Positions 3,089 through 55,791 of a stretch of DNA of 64,000 bases are shown here, piece after piece. The stretch spans positions 32,001-96,000 of the forward strand of contig CAYZJA010000002.1 in the NCBI GenBank assembly GCA_964479005.1, written 5' to 3'. Below the pieces are notes generated by a model, which was given only the letters and a program-made list of their open reading frames with translations, was not told where the DNA came from and searched no databases. Position 1 is the stretch's first letter. The number at the start of each line of letters is the position of its first letter. A program made the position numbers and the translations under genes. The DNA is from an uncultured Candidatus Saccharibacteria bacterium (GTDB taxonomy: Bacteria; Patescibacteriota; Minisyncoccia; UBA6257).

Positions 3089-4630
3089 TTAACGGCTGGC
3101 TAATTCTTTAAGATAAGAAATATCCCTTTCATACCTATCAGCTATCGCCAGTACATTATCTCCGTAAAAACGATAACGTGTATTTGTGGATCCAGAAAAA
3201 TAAATCATCGCCGCGCGCCACTCTGCATCCCTTGTTTGTTTAGCTGCCCCCCATCTGGATAAATATAAAGCAGCGGCAACAAAAGCATCTCTAATATCCC
3301 AAGGATTAGCAGGATTATTACCTGTGATTTTACTCACCTTATCTTTGTAAATCATCCATGTTGAGGGGATAAATTGAGCCGGACCCATTGCTCCGCCCCA
3401 ACCAACCTGTTTTCCACTTCTAAACATTGGGCAGGAGACAGGAGTTGTGTTAGGATCTAATCCCAATTCCCTGCAAACTTGTAAAAATGGTTGTTGATCC
3501 CTGCTTGGTTTCATTATCTCTCTCCAGCTTTTACTCGGAGGATCCCCAGGACGGTTACAAGTTCCTACATTCTGTCCTAAATTAGATTCCTGAGTCAAAA
3601 TTGCTAAAAGAAAAGCTGGCCTTACTCCAGTACGACTACTTACCCAATTGGCTATTTCCAATGCTTCACCAAAAGTAACTTGAGTTTTTACCCCAATTAA
3701 CTGATAAATACGCGCTCTAATCTCATTCGCTTTTTGCCTTGATTCAGACAACATTTGCTGATACTTATCTTCGTTTCCATCAGTAATATGCCAAAGATCA
3801 ACTTTTTCACTCTCTGTTCTATTTAAATCATTTTTCTGGAGCAACTGCATTGCTAATAAGTTTTGAGTTTCATCCTTGTCACTGCTTAATTCTTGATTTT
3901 GCTTATTTAAAGTTAGCTTTAAGGCTTCAAGCTCTTCAATACTTTCTTGAATCCTTTCCTGAATATTATTAAGAGCATTGGAATAATCAAAAAACTCGCT
4001 TATTGTCCCTGACCCCAACAGTATTTCTAAGAGCGACACCTGCTTTAATTGATAAAAAGATTGTAAAGAATTTGTTAAATTTTCTTTTGTTGCCCCTACT
4101 TTATCAATAGTTTTAATAATAGAAGTTGTCGTTTCATCAATTCTTACATCAAGATATTGCAAATTGAGATTGGTAGATTTGATTTGAAGGCTTAATTTTG
4201 ACGCCCTGCTTCTTAATTCATTAATTTTATTTTGAAGGGTCTGCTTTTCCTGTTTTGTCGTAACTATTAATTTTTCATATTCGGCTATTTCTTTTTCAAC
4301 TGATGCTAACTCTTCCTCTAATTTAGCCCGCTCTTCATCATATAGAGCTTCTGCTTCTTTTGATTGAAAAAAGATTGGCGCTGTTACGCTGGATTGAATA
4401 ATGGAAAAAAGAAAAAAAGAAAAAATTAATAACGAAACAAATCTTTGTCTTGTTATTTTCGAACGAAGTGAAAAAACAAGGTTCTGCGGACAGAGTGCGC
4501 AGGTTCTTATTTTTTTCCCTTTAGAAAAAAAGGGTGGAATAAATATTTTTCTCTTGTTTTCTACAATTTCTTTTTTAAAAGGAAAGGAAATATCTTTAAC
4601 CTTCTTTCTAGAAATAGACTTAATAACCAT
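3089..4630 (-). CDS. Membrane-anchored coiled-coil protein with C-terminal lytic transglycosylase (MltB/Slt-like) domain
   Basis: 513 aa with an N-terminal TM helix and about 250 aa of heptad-like coiled coil. The C-terminus carries GWGGAMGPAQFIPSTW, an MltB-type lytic transglycosylase motif. The N-terminal 50 aa may be over-called because a conserved non-coding element overlaps 4474-4511. Confidence 0.6.
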   Translation of the reverse strand: MVIKSISRKKVKDISFPFKKEIVENKRKIFIPPFFSKGKKIRTCALCPQNLVFSLRSKITRQRFVSLLIFSFFLFSIIQSSVTAPIFFQSKEAEALYDEERAKLEEELASVEKEIAEYEKLIVTTKQEKQTLQNKINELRSRASKLSLQIKSTNLNLQYLDVRIDETTTSIIKTIDKVGATKENLTNSLQSFYQLKQVSLLEILLGSGTISEFFDYSNALNNIQERIQESIEELEALKLTLNKQNQELSSDKDETQNLLAMQLLQKNDLNRTESEKVDLWHITDGNEDKYQQMLSESRQKANEIRARIYQLIGVKTQVTFGEALEIANWVSSRTGVRPAFLLAILTQESNLGQNVGTCNRPGDPPSKSWREIMKPSRDQQPFLQVCRELGLDPNTTPVSCPMFRSGKQVGWGGAMGPAQFIPSTWMIYKDKVSKITGNNPANPWDIRDAFVAAALYLSRWGAAKQTRDAEWRAAMIYFSGSTNTRYRFYGDNVLAIADRYERDISYLKELASR

Positions 4631-5482: not shown

Positions 5483-6127
5483 TTACTTGTCATTTAGGCT
5501 TTCTTTAAAATATGAAATTCTTTCTATGGGGTCTTCTGCTTCAAAAATAGCTGAACCAATTCCTACAAAATCCACACCTGATTTTTTAACTTCTTCTAAA
5601 TTTTCTTCATTTACCCCACCGTCTATCTCGCATAAAACTTTAGGATATTTTGTTTTAAATTCCTGAATTCTATCCAGTACAAACCATTCAAATTTCTGAC
5701 CAGAAGGGCCTGGGGTTACTCCTAACGCGACAACAATATCTATTTTCTTTAAATATTGATCAAGAGCAGTAAATGGAGTTCCTGGATTAATGGCTATGCC
5801 CAATTCTACTCCATTTTTACGGCAAAGCTCGTAGATATAAGAAAAATCTTTTATTGCCTCATAATGAATAATGACTCTCTTAGGAGAAGTTTCCAGCCAG
5901 TAAGGCAAAACCTGCTCAGGGTTAAAAACCATTAAGTGTAATTCAAATTTCCCTTTTATTTTTTTGATTTTTTTTAAAATTTCCGGACTATTCCATGTTT
6001 TCCAGGAAGTAAATTTACCATCAGCTATATCAATCTGAAAAATTCCATCAAAATCTTTTAATAATCTAATTTTTTCTTTAAGTTTTTGTATTGTTTTAGT
6101 ATTAATAACTGGAATGAGTTTAGGCAT
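5483..6127 (-). CDS. rpe: Ribulose-phosphate 3-epimerase
   Basis: 214 aa TIM-barrel sequence with HLMV, GVTPG and DGGV motifs. Confidence 0.8.
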   Translation of the reverse strand: MPKLIPVINTKTIQKLKEKIRLLKDFDGIFQIDIADGKFTSWKTWNSPEILKKIKKIKGKFELHLMVFNPEQVLPYWLETSPKRVIIHYEAIKDFSYIYELCRKNGVELGIAINPGTPFTALDQYLKKIDIVVALGVTPGPSGQKFEWFVLDRIQEFKTKYPKVLCEIDGGVNEENLEEVKKSGVDFVGIGSAIFEAEDPIERISYFKESLNDK

Positions 6128-6164
6128 AATTATAGAACAATTAACAATTAATAAATATTAAATA

Positions 6165-6608: not shown

Positions 6609-7606
6609 GGTAATTTTTTAATCTGTTGGAGCAATGTCCATGAATAAGCCCATTCATTGTCATACCAAACTAAAATTTTTACTAAATCTTTATCTACCAC
6701 TTTGGTAAAACTTAAATCAACTATCGCAGGAGCAATGGTTTTAATAATATCAGAAGAAACTAATTGTTCATTTGTTGCCTCTACAATACCTTCCCAGTTT
6801 TTTTCTTCTGACGCTTTTTTAAAGATTTTATTAATTTCTTCTGCAGAAGTATCTTTCTCGGAAACAAAAGTAATATCAGCAATAGAACCGCAAACAACCG
6901 GCACTCTCAAGGCTATGCCGTCAAATTTCCCGCCTAAATCTTTCATAACTTTGCCAACGCATTTAGCTGCTCCAGTAGTAGAAGGAACAATGTTTTGACT
7001 AGCTGCTCTTCCTCTCCTCCAGTCTTTTGAATTAGGGCCATCAACTAAGCGTTGAGTAGAAGTATAAGCGTGAATTGTATTAAGAACTGCTTTTTTAATT
7101 CCAATTTTTTCTTGCAAAATTTTCATAATCGGCGCTACAGCATTAGTTGTGCAAGAACCATTAGAAATAATATCGAATTTTGCCAAATCTTCATCATTTA
7201 TTCCTATCAAAACTGTCTTCCCCAGCTTATCTTCCTCTCCTTTTGCAGGAGCAGTAATAATAACTTTTTTTGCGCCAGCTTCTATATGCGCTTTAGCTTT
7301 AACATAGTCACTAAATGCTCCAGTAGCTTCTATAACTAGATCAACTTCTAAATCCCCCCATGGAAGATTTTTTGGGTCTTTTTCCTGAAAAAATGGAATT
7401 TCCTTACCATCAATAACAAGCAACTTTCCTTGCTTTTCAATTTTTTTATCAAATTTTCCGTAGACTGTATCATTTTTCAAAAGATAGGCTAAATTCTCCA
7501 AGTCAGCCAAATCATTAATCGCGACTGTTTGAATTTTAGGTTCTTCAAAAGCCAATCGAAAAAATGCCCTGCCTATCCTTCCAAAACCATTTATACTAAT
7601 ACGCAT
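6605..7606 (-). CDS. gap: Glyceraldehyde-3-phosphate dehydrogenase
   Basis: 333 aa. Starts INGFGRIGR and has the catalytic SCTTN motif. Confidence 0.9.
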   Translation of the reverse strand: MRISINGFGRIGRAFFRLAFEEPKIQTVAINDLADLENLAYLLKNDTVYGKFDKKIEKQGKLLVIDGKEIPFFQEKDPKNLPWGDLEVDLVIEATGAFSDYVKAKAHIEAGAKKVIITAPAKGEEDKLGKTVLIGINDEDLAKFDIISNGSCTTNAVAPIMKILQEKIGIKKAVLNTIHAYTSTQRLVDGPNSKDWRRGRAASQNIVPSTTGAAKCVGKVMKDLGGKFDGIALRVPVVCGSIADITFVSEKDTSAEEINKIFKKASEEKNWEGIVEATNEQLVSSDIIKTIAPAIVDLSFTKVVDKDLVKILVWYDNEWAYSWTLLQQIKKLP

Positions 7607-7633
7607 GTTTTTAAAAATTAAATTACTTAATTA

Positions 7634-8317
7634 CTAATTACTTAGTAATTCTTTAATTGCCTTTCCAAATTCCTCAGCTGCATCTGGGCCATTGGCAGTA
7701 ATAATCTTATTATCAATTACCACTGGGCTATCTTCATATATTGCCCCATTTTCTTCTAAATCTTTTACCAAACTTTTATCCAATGCAGATGACCAAACAG
7801 TCGCTTTTTTATCTTCCAGAATTCCAGCTTTAGCTAAAAAAACTGGCGCAACACAAATTGCGGCCACTATTTTATTATTCTCGTAAAAATCTTTGGCTAA
7901 TTTATGAAACTTCTGATTATCTAATTCATTAGCCATGCCAGATCCCCCACAAAAAACAACTGCTTTATAATTTTCCAAATTAATTTCATCCAACTCAACA
8001 TGAATAACTACTTGGCCTCCTTGAGATCCTACAGCTATTCCTTTTTCAGTGCCAGTTGTATCAATGAAAAAACCAGCTTTTTCTAAAATTTCCTTGGGAA
8101 TAAAATATTCCTCATCTTGAAAATCTTTAAGAGCGACTACCATTAAAATCTTTTTTTCCATAGTAATATTAGTTAATTCATCATGAACATTAGGTTGAGT
8201 TGTTGAAGTTGTAGATGGCACTTTCTGAGGAGCAAAAAGCGTTAAAGGAACGCCCCAGAGAACTAATCCAAGGCCAACTATAATTAAAACTGCCGAATAA
8301 ATAAATCTATTTTTCAT
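7634..8317 (-). CDS. DJ-1/PfpI family protein with N-terminal membrane anchor
   Basis: 227 aa. An N-terminal TM helix is followed by a class I glutamine amidotransferase-like fold (KKILMVV...VVFCGGSG...AAICVAP). Confidence 0.6.
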   Translation of the reverse strand: MKNRFIYSAVLIIVGLGLVLWGVPLTLFAPQKVPSTTSTTQPNVHDELTNITMEKKILMVVALKDFQDEEYFIPKEILEKAGFFIDTTGTEKGIAVGSQGGQVVIHVELDEINLENYKAVVFCGGSGMANELDNQKFHKLAKDFYENNKIVAAICVAPVFLAKAGILEDKKATVWSSALDKSLVKDLEENGAIYEDSPVVIDNKIITANGPDAAEEFGKAIKELLSN

Positions 8318-44757: not shown

Positions 44758-44830
44758 TGCGGGGTTAGTATAGTGGTAATATACGACATTGCCAATGTCG
44801 AGACGCGAGTTCAATTCTCGTACCCCGCTC
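44758..44830 (+). tRNA. tRNA-Gly (anticodon GCC)
   Basis: The cloverleaf was folded by hand. The acceptor is GCGGGGT/ACCCCGC, the anticodon stem-loop is CGACA-TTGCCAA-TGTCG and the T-arm is GCGAG-TTCAATT-CTCGT. Confidence 0.85.
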
Positions 44831-52700: not shown

Positions 52701-52830
52701 GAAAAGTCAACCCCGTTAGAGATTTAAGTTAGTTAATTTATTTTCAATGACCATAGCCGAGAGGCGGCTTCGCCTTATGGTTTTTATATTATTGAAAAGC
52801 TGGGTTGAATCTCTAACGGGGTCAACCCTC
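52701..52830. other. ~130-nt nested hairpin element (candidate structured RNA)
   Basis: The outer 15-bp perfect inverted repeat is accccgttagagatt / aatctctaacggggt. An 8-bp stem ttttcaat/attgaaaa sits inside, and an inner ccata..aggcg-gctt-cgcct..tatgg hairpin sits inside that. Confidence 0.6.
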
Positions 52831-53254: not shown

Positions 53255-53264
53255 ATTAAATTGA

Positions 53265-53465
53265 CTTTGTGACACGGTAAACATTGTGTGAAACAAAGTG
53301 TGAAACAATATTAACAAAGCCATTTCCTAATTTTAGACTAAAAATCTGGCTTATTTATGGGCAAACCAAGTAATTTAGGCAGCTTTTATCTCTATTAAGC
53401 CAAAACCCTAATTAAAAATAGTTACTTTGTGACACGGTAAACATTGTGTGAAACAAAGCGTGAAA
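53265..53465. repeat. Two ~45-bp direct repeats (ttactttgtgacacggtaaacattgtgtgaaacaaag[t/c]gtgaaaca) separated by ~113 bp
   Basis: Copies lie at 53265-53308 and 53422-53465 with 44/45 identity. Each contains GTGTGAAACA sub-repeats. They sit between the yraN stop and the tRNA island. Confidence 0.9.
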
Positions 53466-53496
53466 CACCGTAAAACGGCGTGAAGGAAATTATTTG

Positions 53497-53681
53497 TGGA
53501 CTCAGCGAGAATCGAACTCGCGTCTTCGCAACTTGCCCCCACACCATTATATTAGTGGACCCGAGGGGAATCGAACCCCTATCTCGGCAATGCGAATGCC
53601 GTGTAATACCATTGTACTACGGGCCCGTATTTTATGGTGTGGGGGTAAAAATGCGGTATATTACCACTATACTATGAGCCC
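53497..53681 (-). tRNA. Split/interrupted tRNA-like gene (Gly-like body, G3:U70) whose anticodon arm carries a ~150-nt insertion containing a complete tRNA-Ala
   Basis: The 5' half at 53681-53651 is GGGCTCA-TA-GTAT-AGTGGTAA-TATAC-CGCAT. The 3' half at 53530-53497 is TTGCG-AAGAC-GCGAG-TTCGATT-CTCGC-TGAGTCC-A. The acceptor halves pair perfectly (GGGCTCA/TGAGTCC). The insertion is clamped by the 12-bp inverted repeat CCCCCACACCAT/ATGGTGTGGGGG. Confidence 0.5.
53556..53626 (-). tRNA. tRNA-Ala (anticodon CGC), nested inside the split tRNA-like gene
   Basis: Hand-folded. The acceptor GGGCCCG/CGGGTCC has the G3:U70 alanine identity pair. The anticodon stem-loop is CGGCA-TTCGCAT-TGCCG and the T-arm is AGGGG-TTCGATT-CCCCT. 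Confidence 0.8.
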
Positions 53682-53885
53682 ATTAATTAAATTCACATTA
53701 TTTAAAATTATCTAAAATAGCATAGCAAAGATTTTAGATTTAAACAAATTTAAAGAAATAAAAAAGGAAGAAGAGAGGGGAGGTTCTTGTTCTGTCTTTA
53801 CCCTGAGATTTTACAGAGGAAGTACAATTACCCTTTTAGGAGATAAGTATCTCAACCTTGGCTTCTTCCTTATTTATATTCCCCT

Positions 53886-54083
53886 TTATTTAGATAGAAG
53901 ATCATTAAGCATTTCTTTGATAATCTCTTCACCAAATTCTTTCAATTCTGATAGGGGGATATTAGTGGCTTTGGCCATGTTACCTAACTCTCGTTTCATA
54001 TCTGGTCCGAGTCGCATACCTTCACGATTGAGCCGATACTTCAAGAGAATTAAAGCAATTTCACCTTTTCTTTTTTCATCCAT
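53886..54083 (-). CDS. Small hypothetical protein
   Basis: 65 aa with no recognised domain. Confidence 0.35.
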   Translation of the reverse strand: MDEKRKGEIALILLKYRLNREGMRLGPDMKRELGNMAKATNIPLSELKEFGEEIIKEMLNDLLSK

Positions 54084-54534: not shown

Positions 54535-55701
54535 ATGCCCAAAGTAAAATGTAGAGTTTGCAAAAAGATATTCTATATCAAATCCAATTGGCTTAAAAGA
54601 GGATGGGGAAAATATTGTTCGAGGAAATGTCAGTACAAATCCCAATTGAAAGGAAAATTTGTGGTTTGCGCCTATTGCGGTAGAAGGGTATATCGATCAC
54701 TTGCTGAATTGCGCAGAAAATCTAAGGCAGGAGTTTATTTTTGTAATTTATCCTGTCATTGCGCTTGGAAAAATAAACAAAGGAAAAGTAAGGGAAGATT
54801 TAAATTACAAAATTTATGGGGACCGTGGTGTAATAGTAGCACTAGGACCTGTGGCGTCCTCGGTACGGATGCAAATTCCGTCGGTCCCCCATTTTTCTTT
54901 CTAAAATTCTTAAAGCCCAAGAAGAAAAAAAATAATCTTTTATTTCTTAAGCGGCCACCAAAGAAAATTCTTTATCATTTTTATTGGAAAAAGAATTATA
55001 CCCAAACAGAGATAGCTAAAATTTTTAATGCCACCCACACTAGCGTGAAAAGATGGTTTAATTATTATAAAATCATGGTGAAGTACCGAACTCTATCTTG
55101 TGGCCATAATCCCAATATTTTAAGAAATTTAAAATTAGGTCGTACAGATAAAGCTATTAGAAAATCGGCAGAAGCAAGAAGAATTTATTCAAAAGAAAAA
55201 CTTATTGAAAAAATAAAAGAATTTGTACAAAAAGAAGAAAGAATTCCTACAAAGAACGAATTTATTAATAATTCCTCTTATCCAGATTATGTCACTTACA
55301 GGCATTATTTTGGCACTTGGAATAATGCCATCAAGACAGCGGGCTACAAGCCAAATGAACAATGGTTTGCCTCAGGACATTTATTTGCTAAAGATGGGCA
55401 CAAATGTAATTCAATTTCAGAAATAATCATTGACGATTGGTTTTTTGAAAATGATATTTCTCATACGAGAGAGTGTTTATACCCAGAAGGACGATATCGC
55501 TGTGATTTTATGGTTGGCAATACTTTTATTGAATTTTTTGGTTTATTTAATGCTTCCATTGTTAACCCAAGTTATATTGAAATCGTTAAAAGAAAAAAAG
55601 AAATATGTAAGAAATTTAATATTGTCCTCATTGAACTCTATGAGAAGGATCTTTATAAATTAGATCAATCCTTGGGAGCAAAGATTGGATTAAAAGTATA
55701 A
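54535..55701 (+). CDS. Composite ORF: N-terminal double Zn-ribbon, HTH, HNH-repeat (homing-endonuclease-associated) and DUF559/Vsr-like PD-(D/E)xK nuclease region
   Basis: 388 aa. The CxxC..CxxxC repeat occurs twice. The other elements are an HTH (TQTEIAKIFNATHTSVKRW), an HNH-repeat-like motif (YVTYRHYFGTWNNAIKTAGY) and a C-terminal S.SE....DDW...N..H..E...P.G.YR.DF.V......IEF.G. The ORF reads through an embedded tRNA-His-like gene at 54818-54891 and a poly-A tract, so the true CDS boundaries are uncertain and it may be a fragmented gene. Confidence 0.4.
   Translation: MPKVKCRVCKKIFYIKSNWLKRGWGKYCSRKCQYKSQLKGKFVVCAYCGRRVYRSLAELRRKSKAGVYFCNLSCHCAWKNKQRKSKGRFKLQNLWGPWCNSSTRTCGVLGTDANSVGPPFFFLKFLKPKKKKNNLLFLKRPPKKILYHFYWKKNYTQTEIAKIFNATHTSVKRWFNYYKIMVKYRTLSCGHNPNILRNLKLGRTDKAIRKSAEARRIYSKEKLIEKIKEFVQKEERIPTKNEFINNSSYPDYVTYRHYFGTWNNAIKTAGYKPNEQWFASGHLFAKDGHKCNSISEIIIDDWFFENDISHTRECLYPEGRYRCDFMVGNTFIEFFGLFNASIVNPSYIEIVKRKKEICKKFNIVLIELYEKDLYKLDQSLGAKIGLKV
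54818..54891 (+). tRNA. tRNA-His-like gene (anticodon GTG) with encoded G-1:C73
   Basis: Hand-folded. G-1 is followed by the acceptor GGGACCG/CGGTCCC and discriminator C. The D-arm is GTGT..GCAC, the anticodon stem-loop is AGGAC-CTGTGGC-GTCCT and the T-arm is ACGGA-TGCAAAT-TCCGT. It is oriented opposite to the neighbouring tRNAs and lies inside the predicted ORF. Confidence 0.6.
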
Positions 55702-55791
55702 AAGGCGATAGAGGATTGACCCGCACACCATAACGAATACTAAGTGCCTTTGGCGCTAAGATACGAAGTATGTGCTCGTTTGGTATCAGGG

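Follow-up and report, generated by a model that had tools for sequence, protein, structure and literature searches.

How a complete tRNA gene comes to lie inside another tRNA gene, and which of the two does the work, is the question raised by positions 53497-53681 of the 64,000-nucleotide stretch of DNA analysed here (contig CAYZJA010000002.1, positions 32,001 to 96,000; hereafter the window). On the minus strand of this segment a tRNA-Ala(CGC) gene, bracketed by a 12-bp inverted repeat, sits between the two halves of a second, outer tRNA gene. Comparison with related genomes makes it very probable that a Paceibacterota-like Patescibacteria genome had its resident tRNA-Ala(CGC) gene here, and that a miniature cassette of ~120 bp has interrupted the anticodon loop of this gene. 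The cassette itself is best read, with a probability of about 0.8, as a self-complementing mobile element that would replace the gene it disrupts. The host genes are bacterial (NusA, trigger factor), and the closest NusA loci are those of metagenome-assembled Paceibacterota and Wolfebacteria.

As the first-pass annotation had proposed from the letters alone, all the pieces of an outer tRNA are present on the minus strand, with acceptor strands that pair at 7 of 7 positions, G3:U70 included (Table 1). The outer halves keep the acceptor stem, A73, the D arm and the T arm; the anticodon loop is missing. The inner gene, which had been described as a complete tRNA-Ala(CGC), is called by both ARAGORN and Rfam (63.1 bits) and is the sole piece of the locus that either of them calls. 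At a permissive Rfam threshold over 53300-53900 the inner tRNA was again the only credible match, the others being chance matches to tRNA-like families. The inverted repeat is perfect over 12 bp and extends to 20 nt at 85% complementarity; its arms lie 1-3 nt away from 53533-53544 and 53633-53644, where they had first been placed. Between the outer ends of the repeat the cassette measures 110 bp (53536-53645), the whole insert coming to ~120 bp, 71 nt of them tRNA, and the window holds one copy of the repeat pair. The minimum free energy fold of 53490-53690 (RNAfold) nests one cloverleaf in another, with an energy of -81.3 kcal/mol and, relative to 200 shuffles, z = -6.8. The predicted stem of the insert consists in turn of an unbroken 12-bp helix, an internal loop of 2x1, a helix of 3 bp, a 1x1 mismatch and the 4 bp that remain of the anticodon stem.

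The arrangement is neither a chance likeness nor an assembly artefact. An independent contig from JGI, L002, matches the whole locus with 100% identity and has the same arrangement, and the same nested architecture was found in three assemblies of a related species (L117-L119) and, for a distant relative, in three metagenome contigs (L089, L093, L113). The nested form is present in at least seven independent assemblies from three lineages, and the tRNA-in-tRNA arrangement noticed at first reading is accordingly genuine.

The outer gene and its intact orthologs

Relatives of the host were collected through the neighbourhoods of close homologs of the adjacent YraN gene. Four of them (L130, L127, L131/L132 and L120-L122), which are 86-89% identical to the window in the flanking housekeeping DNA, carry an uninterrupted tRNA-Ala(CGC) at the same site and between the same flanks. 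In L130 the intact gene reads GGGCTCATAGTATAGTGGTAATATACCGCA TTCGCAT TGCGGAGACGCGAGTTCGATTCTCGCTGAGTCCA. The 5' half in the window is identical to the intact genes of L130 and L127 (30/30) and nearly so to those of L120 and L131; the 3' half matches L130 at 33 of 34 positions, the single difference, G43 to A, breaking the C27-G43 pair. The empty site CCGCA-TTCGCAT-TGCGG stands against the occupied CCGCA-TTTTTA[..]CAAGT-TGCGA, such that the loop TT-CGCA-T has become TT-[TTTA-repeat-tRNA-repeat-CAAG]-T and CGCA, the anticodon with position 37, has been lost. A syntenic intact ortholog in the more distant L006 is identical to the outer halves of the window at 56 of 64 positions. Orthology thus identifies the outer gene as that of the resident tRNA-Ala(CGC). 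The block CTTTGCTATGCTATTTTAGA..TTTAAATAAT is kept upstream of the intact gene in L127 and L130, in a promoter-like region; a promoter scan listed neither the TTGCTA-17-TTAAAT site of Table 1 nor a promoter in the interval that separates the inner tRNA from the outer 5' half.

The likeness of the outer body to the tRNA-Gly at 44759 (44758 in the first-pass annotation) is real, the D arm being identical over 19 nt and the halves matching at 45 of 64 positions overall, and it is due to a D arm and T arm common to both genes. An identity as a Gly, Lys or suppressor tRNA, for which the Gly-like D arm and the UUU/UUA in the loop might speak, is ruled out by the intact tRNA-Ala(CGC) orthologs. Co-conversion of the anticodon stem, hinted at by CTGCA/TGCAG in L120, was considered and dropped, CCGCA/TGCGG being native to the clade in L127 and L130.

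Since the insertion replaced CGCA, the outer gene cannot decode Ala however its transcript is cut. The outer tRNA was never called by intron-aware ARAGORN, even with relaxed thresholds and introns as long as 200 nt. When all splice junctions were tried, none gave an NGC anticodon in a 7-nt loop, the outcome always being a non-Ala anticodon or an oversized loop; the trial is uninformative on splicing as such, as the body is that of a tRNA and every junction yields a "tRNA". With a G3:U70 body, any non-Ala anticodon would mis-insert alanine.

The substitutions in the two tRNAs point the same way. When 21 cloverleaf stem pairs were scored in every copy, the intact genes of L130, L127, L131, L120, L006 and L123 kept all 21, and the inner tRNAs of the window and L117 kept 20 (the exception, 13:22, is a position that is often non-Watson-Crick in tRNAs); G3:U70 is kept in all of these. 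The outer halves are broken at C27.A43 in the window, at A2.C71 and A49.C65 in L117, and at C5.A68 in L089, with G3:U70 kept in the first two and lost in the third. Relative to L130, three of the four substitutions in the outer halves of the window and L117 are pair-breaking, against none of 13 in the intact genes, all of which lie in loops or preserve pairing (Fisher ~0.006). Between the window and L117 the inner tRNA has changed at 12 of its 71 positions (59/71 identical), and all the changes in stems keep pairing. The outer genes of the other nested cases described below are also damaged: that of L102 is without an anticodon, that of L098 has an unpaired 3' end, and that of L091 is riddled with insertions. 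These substitution patterns show the outer halves to be decaying pseudogene fragments and the inner tRNA to evolve under structural constraint. The inner tRNA-Ala(CGC) is presumed to be the working gene, from its compensated changes and from the finding that ARAGORN calls no second tRNA-Ala(CGC) in the 64-kb window. Its 5' leader varies among the occupied loci, being AAAATAC in the window, AAAAATAC in L089 and the unrelated AAGGCATATAC in L117.

Table 1. Parts of the nested locus, with the putative promoter first and the remaining features in their order along the minus strand from 53681 to 53497
Feature	Position (strand)	Sequence	Remarks
Putative promoter of resident tRNA-Ala gene	53700..53728 (-)	TTGCTA, 17 nt, TTAAAT	Read by eye; ends 19 nt upstream of outer 5' end
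Outer 5' half	53652..53681 (-)	GGGCTCATAGTATAGTGGTAATATACCGCA (GGGCTCA TA GTAT AGTGGTA ATAT A CCGCA)	tRNA positions 1-31: acceptor 5' strand, D arm, 5' strand of anticodon stem; upstream flank TTAATG
5' junction	53646..53651 (-)	TTTTTA	TT left over from loop positions 32-33; TTTA absent from empty site
Inverted-repeat arm, 5' in tRNA sense	53634..53645 (-)	CCCCCACACCAT	Exact match
Spacer	53627..53633 (-)	AAAATAC	5' leader of inner tRNA
Inner tRNA-Ala(CGC)	53556..53626 (-)	GGGCCCGTAGTACAATGGTATTACACGGCATTCGCATTGCCGAGATAGGGGTTCGATTCCCCTCGGGTCCA	Cargo, presumed working gene; G3:U70, A73, CCA not encoded
Spacer	53548..53555 (-)	CTAATATA	3' trailer of inner tRNA
Inverted-repeat arm, 3' in tRNA sense	53536..53547 (-)	ATGGTGTGGGGG	
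3' junction	53531..53535 (-)	CAAGT	T left over from loop position 38; CAAG absent from empty site
Outer 3' half	53497..53530 (-)	TGCGAAGACGCGAGTTCGATTCTCGCTGAGTCCA (TGCGA AGAC GCGAG TTCGATT CTCGC TGAGTCC A)	tRNA positions 39-73

A repeat family with tRNA cargo

The repeats that bound the inner tRNA belong to a dispersed family. A scan of metagenome contigs for CCCCCACACCAT-N(75-105)-ATGGTGTGGGGG, with the repeat exact and the spacing 75-105 nt, returned 31 loci in ~25 distinct contexts with a G+C content of 32-64%. Most copies are plain hairpins of 60-210 nt (members of 62-209 bp), none with an open reading frame (ORF), and subfamilies lengthen the 12-bp repeat to 16-22 bp. The copies lie mostly between protein genes; they also occur in rRNA operon spacers, and one is nested in another copy. 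Direct repeats of 4 bp (TTTA, TAAA, TTCA, TCAA) stand at the ends of 8 of the ~25 copies, a tRNA-Thr cassette among them. In the NusA-YraN spacer a 70-nt member is present in L117 and L128 and the site is empty in the window and five relatives; the empty sites have a single TTTA, and the filled ones have it at either edge of the insert. By these features the repeat family is one of miniature non-autonomous DNA transposons.

A tRNA as cargo between the repeats, at a site that is itself a tRNA gene, was seen five independent times (Ala, CAU twice, Thr and Pro), in the window and in other uncultured Patescibacteria. The tRNA-Ala(CGC) cargo of the window, L117 and L089 groups lies in the anticodon loop of the outer gene. 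A tRNA(CAU) lies in the T loop of another CAU tRNA in the L094 and L112 groups, and a different tRNA(CAU) lies in L102 in the D loop of the ortholog of that same outer gene. In L098 a tRNA-Thr(CGU) occupies position 38/39, in the anticodon loop, of a tRNA-Thr(CGU) gene and is flanked by a TAAA duplication, and in L091 a tRNA-Pro(UGG) with repeats of a second family lies inside a Pro-like outer gene. The cargo has the orientation of the host gene in all cases, and cargo and outer gene agree in anticodon in each case where that of the outer gene is still legible or follows from orthologs (Ala, CAU, Thr). Several of the outer genes carry additional insertions. As a control, 65 distinct tRNA contexts were inspected, and flanking inverted repeats of this kind were found only at the cassette tRNAs, apart from an unrelated 10-nt T-rich match around tRNA-His in L131. 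This argues against the repeat being a processing stem common to the tRNAs of these genomes.

The cassette has also moved between lineages. The window and L089 are 71.5% identical in housekeeping DNA and 63-75% in tRNAs His, Arg and Pro, against 94.5% over the 181 nt of the whole nested block and 71/71 in the inner tRNA. Between the window and L117, the DNA is 87% identical, tRNA-Pro 72/74, tRNA-Arg 60/77 and tRNA-His 50/78, and the inner tRNA only 59/71. The copy in the window being much nearer to that of a distant genome than to that of a close relative, the inner tRNA moves laterally. A comparison of L094 with L112 gives 79% for 16S rRNA, 78% for tRNA-Asp and 90.5% for tRNA-fMet, against 97% for the inner tRNA(CAU). 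Lateral transfer of the cassette between lineages is shown by these discordant identities.

Several further observations concern the family and its cargo. In the RNase P RNA gene (type A, 108.8 bits) at L100 2805-3261, and also in L107 and L109, a 106-nt member sits at the optional P19, and the gene is expanded separately at another place, to 145 nt in a stretch for which the model allows 12 nt. The 16S rRNA gene at L105 3763-5817 is 2055 nt long against a model of 1533 nt, which amounts to ~500 nt of insertions, and hairpin elements of the first family lie just beyond both of its ends (3515-3652 and 5970-6137). The second family is represented in the window by a 111-bp element at 52711-52821, in the NusA-YraN spacer, with a perfect 14-bp terminal inverted repeat (CCCCGTTAGAGATT / AATCTCTAACGGGG) and a TCAA flank at either end; the window, L117, L128 and L123 have it, and L130, L127, L120 and L131 lack it. 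The 11-bp repeat CCCCGTTAAAT, which bounds the tRNA-Pro(UGG) cassette at L091 7780-8000 (minus strand), is related to this 14-bp repeat. The Pro-like outer gene of L091 (CGGGCCG...CGGCCCGACCA) has at least three insertions and yet keeps its acceptor and T stems perfectly paired, and the flanks there are CTTG..TGAA and CCTG..TGAAATT. A third kind of insertion, with the motif TTCCGCC...GGCGGACAGGC, is seen in the T loop of the outer tRNA-Thr (L098 1357-1425) and in the anticodon loop of the outer CAU-type gene of L102; a small hairpin, GTCCCGC-NNN-GCGGGAC, also recurs in L091. A tRNA-Ala(CGC) at the very end of a contig (L014 1-73, a record labelled Pacearchaeota in which NusA is bacterial) has the acceptor stem of the inner tRNA of the window (GGGCCCG/CGGGTCC). 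Finally, a solitary 12-mer, CCCGCACACCAT, at 55720-55731 of the window differs from the cassette repeat by one mismatch and has no partner arm nearby; it lies just past the stop codon of the ORF at 54535-55701.

Weighing the explanations

The explanation that best accommodates these findings is that of a cassette with 12-bp terminal repeats (CCCCCACACCAT / ATGGTGTGGGGG) that carries a foreign tRNA-Ala(CGC) where most members have the interior of a hairpin. The resident promoter would drive a single transcript of outer half, cassette and outer half. RNase P would then cut the 5' end of the inner tRNA, and RNase Z or exonucleases, together with CCA addition, would finish the 3' end; the 12-bp helix and its extension may be an RNase III site that parts the cassette from the outer fragments, which would be degraded or discarded. 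Because the cassette supplies the very tRNA whose gene it destroys, the insertion would be tolerated and then become indispensable ("disrupt and rescue"), and this would explain finding tRNA cassettes inside matching tRNA genes. A promoterless tRNA cassette would be expressed only inside a transcribed RNA gene; it would be lethal in a non-matching single-copy tRNA gene, dispensable elsewhere and indispensable in a matching gene, and the shared orientation and matching identity are what such selection would leave. Spread could be by transposition, shown for the hairpin-only members, and perhaps also by homologous replacement of whole alleles through conserved tRNA flanks. Among the interpretations first offered for the locus, that of a mobile insertion or tRNA-carrying miniature element thus holds up, given the empty sites, a dispersed family with its duplications and the lateral transfer; those of an intron-like, permuted or dicistronic gene do not, for reasons given below.

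Several points weigh against this explanation. The copy in the window has no target-site duplication: TTTA and CAAG replace four nucleotides of the loop, and neither is in the empty site. Related flanks, CNTG-element-TRAA (in reverse, TTYA-element-CAAG or CATG), recur at in-tRNA copies of both repeat families. Simple cut-and-paste transposition does not, on this sequence evidence, explain the junctions in the window, and the recurrent flanks point to a shared insertion chemistry or to carried-over flanks. Duplications of variable length, one-sided targets like those of the insertion sequences (IS) IS200/IS605 and carried-over donor flanks were each tried, and none fits the empty site. The explanation gives no route by which tRNA genes entered between the repeats at least five times. 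Random transposition followed by selection predicts intergenic tRNA cassettes, and none was seen in a small sample defined by the exact repeat and a spacing of 75-105 nt; selection alone may not account for their absence. No transposase or other mobilising enzyme was found among the neighbours scanned in the window (ten ORFs between 47956 and 60443 were covered by the domain scan) or at the other loci that were inspected. Promoter use, co-transcription and processing are predictions, and the uniqueness of the tRNA-Ala(CGC) rests on the 64-kb window rather than on the whole genome. The outer genes of L094 and L112 keep perfect stems and a CAU anticodon, and as there are three functional kinds of CAU tRNA a cognate match is not proven there. 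The outer anticodons of L102 and L091 cannot be read, so that the match is suggested by orthology in L102 and by a Pro-like acceptor stem in L091.

The search for an autonomous relative was likewise negative: among the loci examined, no repeat pair 0.7-2.5 kb apart encloses a transposase ORF. Apparent long-range pairs in L088/L095, L091 and L096 proved to be unrelated 12-mers, two of the L096 matches being coding sequence of pilin leader peptides. No copy of the repeat pair was found in viral contigs. Targeting of hairpin loops as the reason for the hits in tRNA loops is not claimed here, as the flanks of intergenic copies generally form no stems.

The alternative that survives best, and is quite possible although we do not favour it, holds that the nested allele arose once or rarely and now spreads whole, by homologous recombination between tRNA-Ala genes of different lineages and not by transposition. 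A free-standing homing endonuclease that cuts intact alleles could be the driver, and the inverted repeats would be a relic. This would suit the junctions TTTTTA and CAAGT, which are identical in the window and L117 and nearly so in L089 with no target-site duplication. It would also suit the composition of the L089 outer gene, in which a native-like 5' half (with a compensated D-stem change) is joined to a 3' half of the L006 type that mispairs with it, as in co-conversion. The locus is moreover prone to exchange. At least three unrelated tRNA-Ala types (the L130 type, the L123/L124 type and the L128 type) stand at it among close relatives, which implies that it exchanges alleles often, and the resident gene appears, from these sequence types, to be replaced by foreign copies even where there is no cassette. 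The homology arms, however, are merely 30-34 nt, and the boundary of identity in L089 falls at the anticodon stem, leaving almost no left arm. Nuclease-like ORFs do lie in the same tRNA clusters (HNH_repeat in the window, LAGLIDADG in L089, GIY-YIG in L112), but they are not common to the occupied genomes. The L098 tRNA cassette, with its fresh 4-bp duplication (TAAA), testifies to transposition into a cognate gene. The allele-replacement account is in any case a variant of the explanation favoured above and not an alternative to it on what the locus is.

The replacement alleles and the nuclease-like ORFs may be described in their own right. At the resident position, without a cassette, the tRNA-Ala(CGC) of L123/L124 begins GGGGATG and that of L128 GGGGACG. 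In the window the ORF at 54535-55701 (+) encodes 388 amino acids and reads through tRNA-His 54819-54890, an ARAGORN call that is below the Rfam gathering score. Its N-terminal part has CxxC zinc-ribbon repeats and its C-terminal part matches HNH_repeat, which is associated with homing endonucleases, with an end that by eye is PD-(D/E)xK-like. In tblastn it matched its own genome only, and it is absent from the related loci examined. As a cause of the nested allele it was rejected, the other occupied genomes not sharing it and the ORF at that position in L117 being unrelated. In L089 a 151-aa LAGLIDADG-like protein (1388-1843) is encoded beside tRNA-His in the nested-tRNA cluster, and in L112 an 89-aa GIY-YIG protein (7548-7817) lies directly upstream of the nested CAU tRNA.

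Much less probable is the idea of an evolved scaffold, in which the outer halves and the long helix persist for the help they give the inner tRNA in being transcribed, folded or protected or in having its 3' end formed, so that the structure would be a functional dicistronic precursor and not a dead gene. The very stable fold, the high conservation of the outer 3' half (33/34 against L130, two differences against L089) and the still paired acceptor and T stems of much-interrupted outer genes might all be cited for it. Recency explains the conservation, however, as the outer halves are as near to the intact genes as those are to one another. The few changes present are mostly pair-breaking, L098 and L091 have heavily eroded outer genes, and intact alleles that lack any scaffold are the majority state in close relatives.

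More improbable still is an intron acting at the level of RNA, in which the repeat-bounded segment is cut out and the outer halves are ligated so that both tRNAs function. Excision would be protein-dependent, whether by RNase P and RNase Z acting on a 12-bp minihelix-like stem, by RNase III or by another endonuclease. The attraction of this view is that the inserts lie in anticodon, D and T loops, as archaeal introns do, and that the stem, in a nested-cloverleaf fold, has precisely the 12 bp of an acceptor/T-arm minihelix. The same repeat also lies in rRNA operon spacers and inside an RNase P RNA gene that must work. Several outer genes with at least two insertions keep acceptor and T stems perfectly paired, and those of L094 and L112, with perfect stems and a CAU anticodon, have acceptor stems that differ by three compensated pairs. 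At the window, however, no excision regenerates NGC, the anticodon being deleted and the residual loop being CAAGT (CACAGT in L089). The outer halves of all three Ala lineages have pair-breaking mutations, L089 has lost G3:U70, and in L098, L102 and L091 the outer gene has degenerated. Neither a bulge-helix-bulge motif nor a match to group I introns was found. The family makes target-site duplications and lies mostly between protein genes, both properties of a DNA transposon, and at the optional P19 of RNase P RNA an extra hairpin would be tolerable without excision. An assembly artefact, whether a chimeric join at the inverted repeats or one between two tRNA-Ala genes, is practically negligible: inverted repeats and repeated tRNA segments can mislead assemblers and several Logan contigs break near the locus, but they end at 53293, the cause being a 44-nt direct repeat and not the cassette, and the differences among the three lineages that share the nested form are evolutionarily coherent.

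A bolder extension of the self-complementing cassette is that these elements form a natural disrupt-and-rescue selfish system directed to matching tRNA genes by more than chance and selection, or else that they are removed at the RNA level in some hosts. Either is doubtful at present. The guidance might come from the cargo's homology with its target, from a nuclease cutting intact alleles, or from a mobilising enzyme that favours the loops of tRNA genes; by knocking the gene out and putting their own tRNA in its place, the elements would become irremovable. The version with RNA-level removal would amount to a new bacterial tRNA intron, for which the CAU tRNAs of L094 and L112, with outer genes that look intact apart from their insertions, would be the candidates.

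If the explanation favoured here is true, Patescibacteria with the nested allele have a resident tRNA gene that is split and invisible to standard tools and a foreign one in its role, and tRNA inventories and tRNA-based phylogenies of such genomes would be misread. It would mean that a non-autonomous element of ~120 bp can enter an essential single-copy gene and survive by carrying the replacement, and would provide a route for the lateral replacement of tRNA genes between lineages with ~79% 16S rRNA identity. The repeat families, being found in RNase P RNA, rRNA spacers and dead tRNA genes, may also add to the odd insertions in stable RNAs of reduced genomes. No description of a disrupt-and-replace strategy was found in the literature for bacterial miniature elements, and the strategy is familiar from engineered gene drives.

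Known systems and neighbouring features

The closest class of described elements is that of the bacterial MITEs (miniature inverted-repeat transposable elements) and mobile insertion cassettes (MICs), such as Correia/NEMIS of Neisseria and MIC231 of Bacillus cereus. Like these, the cassette family is short and non-autonomous, with terminal inverted repeats, a mostly intergenic dispersal and presence/absence polymorphism among close relatives. A short target-site duplication, as in MITEs, is seen at the level of the family, and the cassette of the window carries, as a MIC does, a passenger gene unrelated to transposition. It differs in that the passenger is a tRNA gene and the site a matching tRNA gene that is destroyed and, on the reading given above, functionally replaced. 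It also differs in that the window copy has no target-site duplication, that no cognate transposase was found at the loci examined and that the repeat cannot be assigned to a described IS family. Literature on tRNA introns in these bacteria, on tRNA-bearing miniature elements and mobile insertion cassettes, and on the repeat 11-mer yielded no description of such elements, and the statement of the first-pass annotation that it knew of no equivalent bacterial arrangement agrees with our finding none in the literature.

Insertions in the anticodon loops of tRNA genes have been described in the same phylum as self-splicing ribozymes of a few hundred nucleotides that restore the host tRNA (2026, PMC13011429). 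The window shares with them the phylum, the site in the anticodon loop, a host tRNA that standard tools miss and a sporadic distribution. The cassette differs in having no ribozyme core (no Rfam match), a deleted anticodon, a host tRNA that decays and a second tRNA inside the insert. Intron_gpI had no match in 53300-53900, either at the gathering threshold or at E up to 10.

Archaeal tRNA introns have a bulge-helix-bulge motif, are removed by a splicing endonuclease and a ligase, and leave a functional host tRNA; the intron of the Haloferax tRNA-Trp carries a C/D-box RNA, and the halves of the split tRNAs of Nanoarchaeum equitans are held by a GC-rich helix of 12-14 bp. The anticodon, D and T loop sites, the holding of a second small RNA and the 12-14 bp helix of Nanoarchaeum all have parallels here. 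The host, however, is bacterial, its tRNA is not restorable, and the helix of the window is without such bulges, a bulge-helix-bulge (two 3-nt bulges with a 4-bp helix between) not being in the predicted fold of the insert. Unlike those of split or permuted tRNAs, the halves here are in their original order and directly adjoin the insert; they derive from a gene that is intact in relatives and have pair-breaking mutations.

Phages, integrative and conjugative elements and genomic islands also use tRNA genes, as attachment sites. They encode an integrase, are kilobases long and restore the tRNA gene by duplicating its 3' segment only. The cassette resembles them as a mobile element that enters a tRNA gene, often at the anticodon or T loop, with sequence that would keep tRNA function; it differs in bringing a whole independent tRNA in ~120 bp and in leaving the original gene split. 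No integrase and no duplicated 3' half were found in the neighbourhood, the only tRNA direct repeat being a 71% similarity between two T arms. The intervening sequences of 23S rRNA (Salmonella, Leptospira) are excised by RNase III without religation, the fragmented rRNA works, and they carry no gene. The likeness lies in sporadic insertions of ~100-nt extended hairpins in stable-RNA genes, the present family also being found in RNase P RNA and rRNA spacers; the difference lies in the cassette having a tRNA and in a tRNA cut in its anticodon loop being non-functional. Synthetic "cleave and rescue" (ClvR) gene drives are engineered, with a nuclease acting in trans. As in ClvR, an essential gene is inactivated, a working replacement is carried and the host would depend on the element; here the insertion itself inactivates the gene, and drive is not claimed for the cassette.

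The DNA downstream of the tRNA-Ala locus has features of its own. The 44-nt direct repeat at which the Logan contigs end (53264-53307 and 53424-53467, 98% identical) is rich in TGTTTCAC / GTGAAACA, and like motifs, including the perfect palindrome TTTGTTTCACGTGAAACAAAG, are kept downstream of tRNA-Ala in all close relatives. The repeat could be a protein-binding site or a terminator. Short palindromes (CCACGTTTAACGTGG / CACCGTTTAACGGTG) follow tRNA genes in distant genomes (L089 8203-8260; L112 7440-7530 and 8080-8130), and a similar palindrome, GCCGTTTTACGGT, follows the outer 3' half in the window (~53460-53480).

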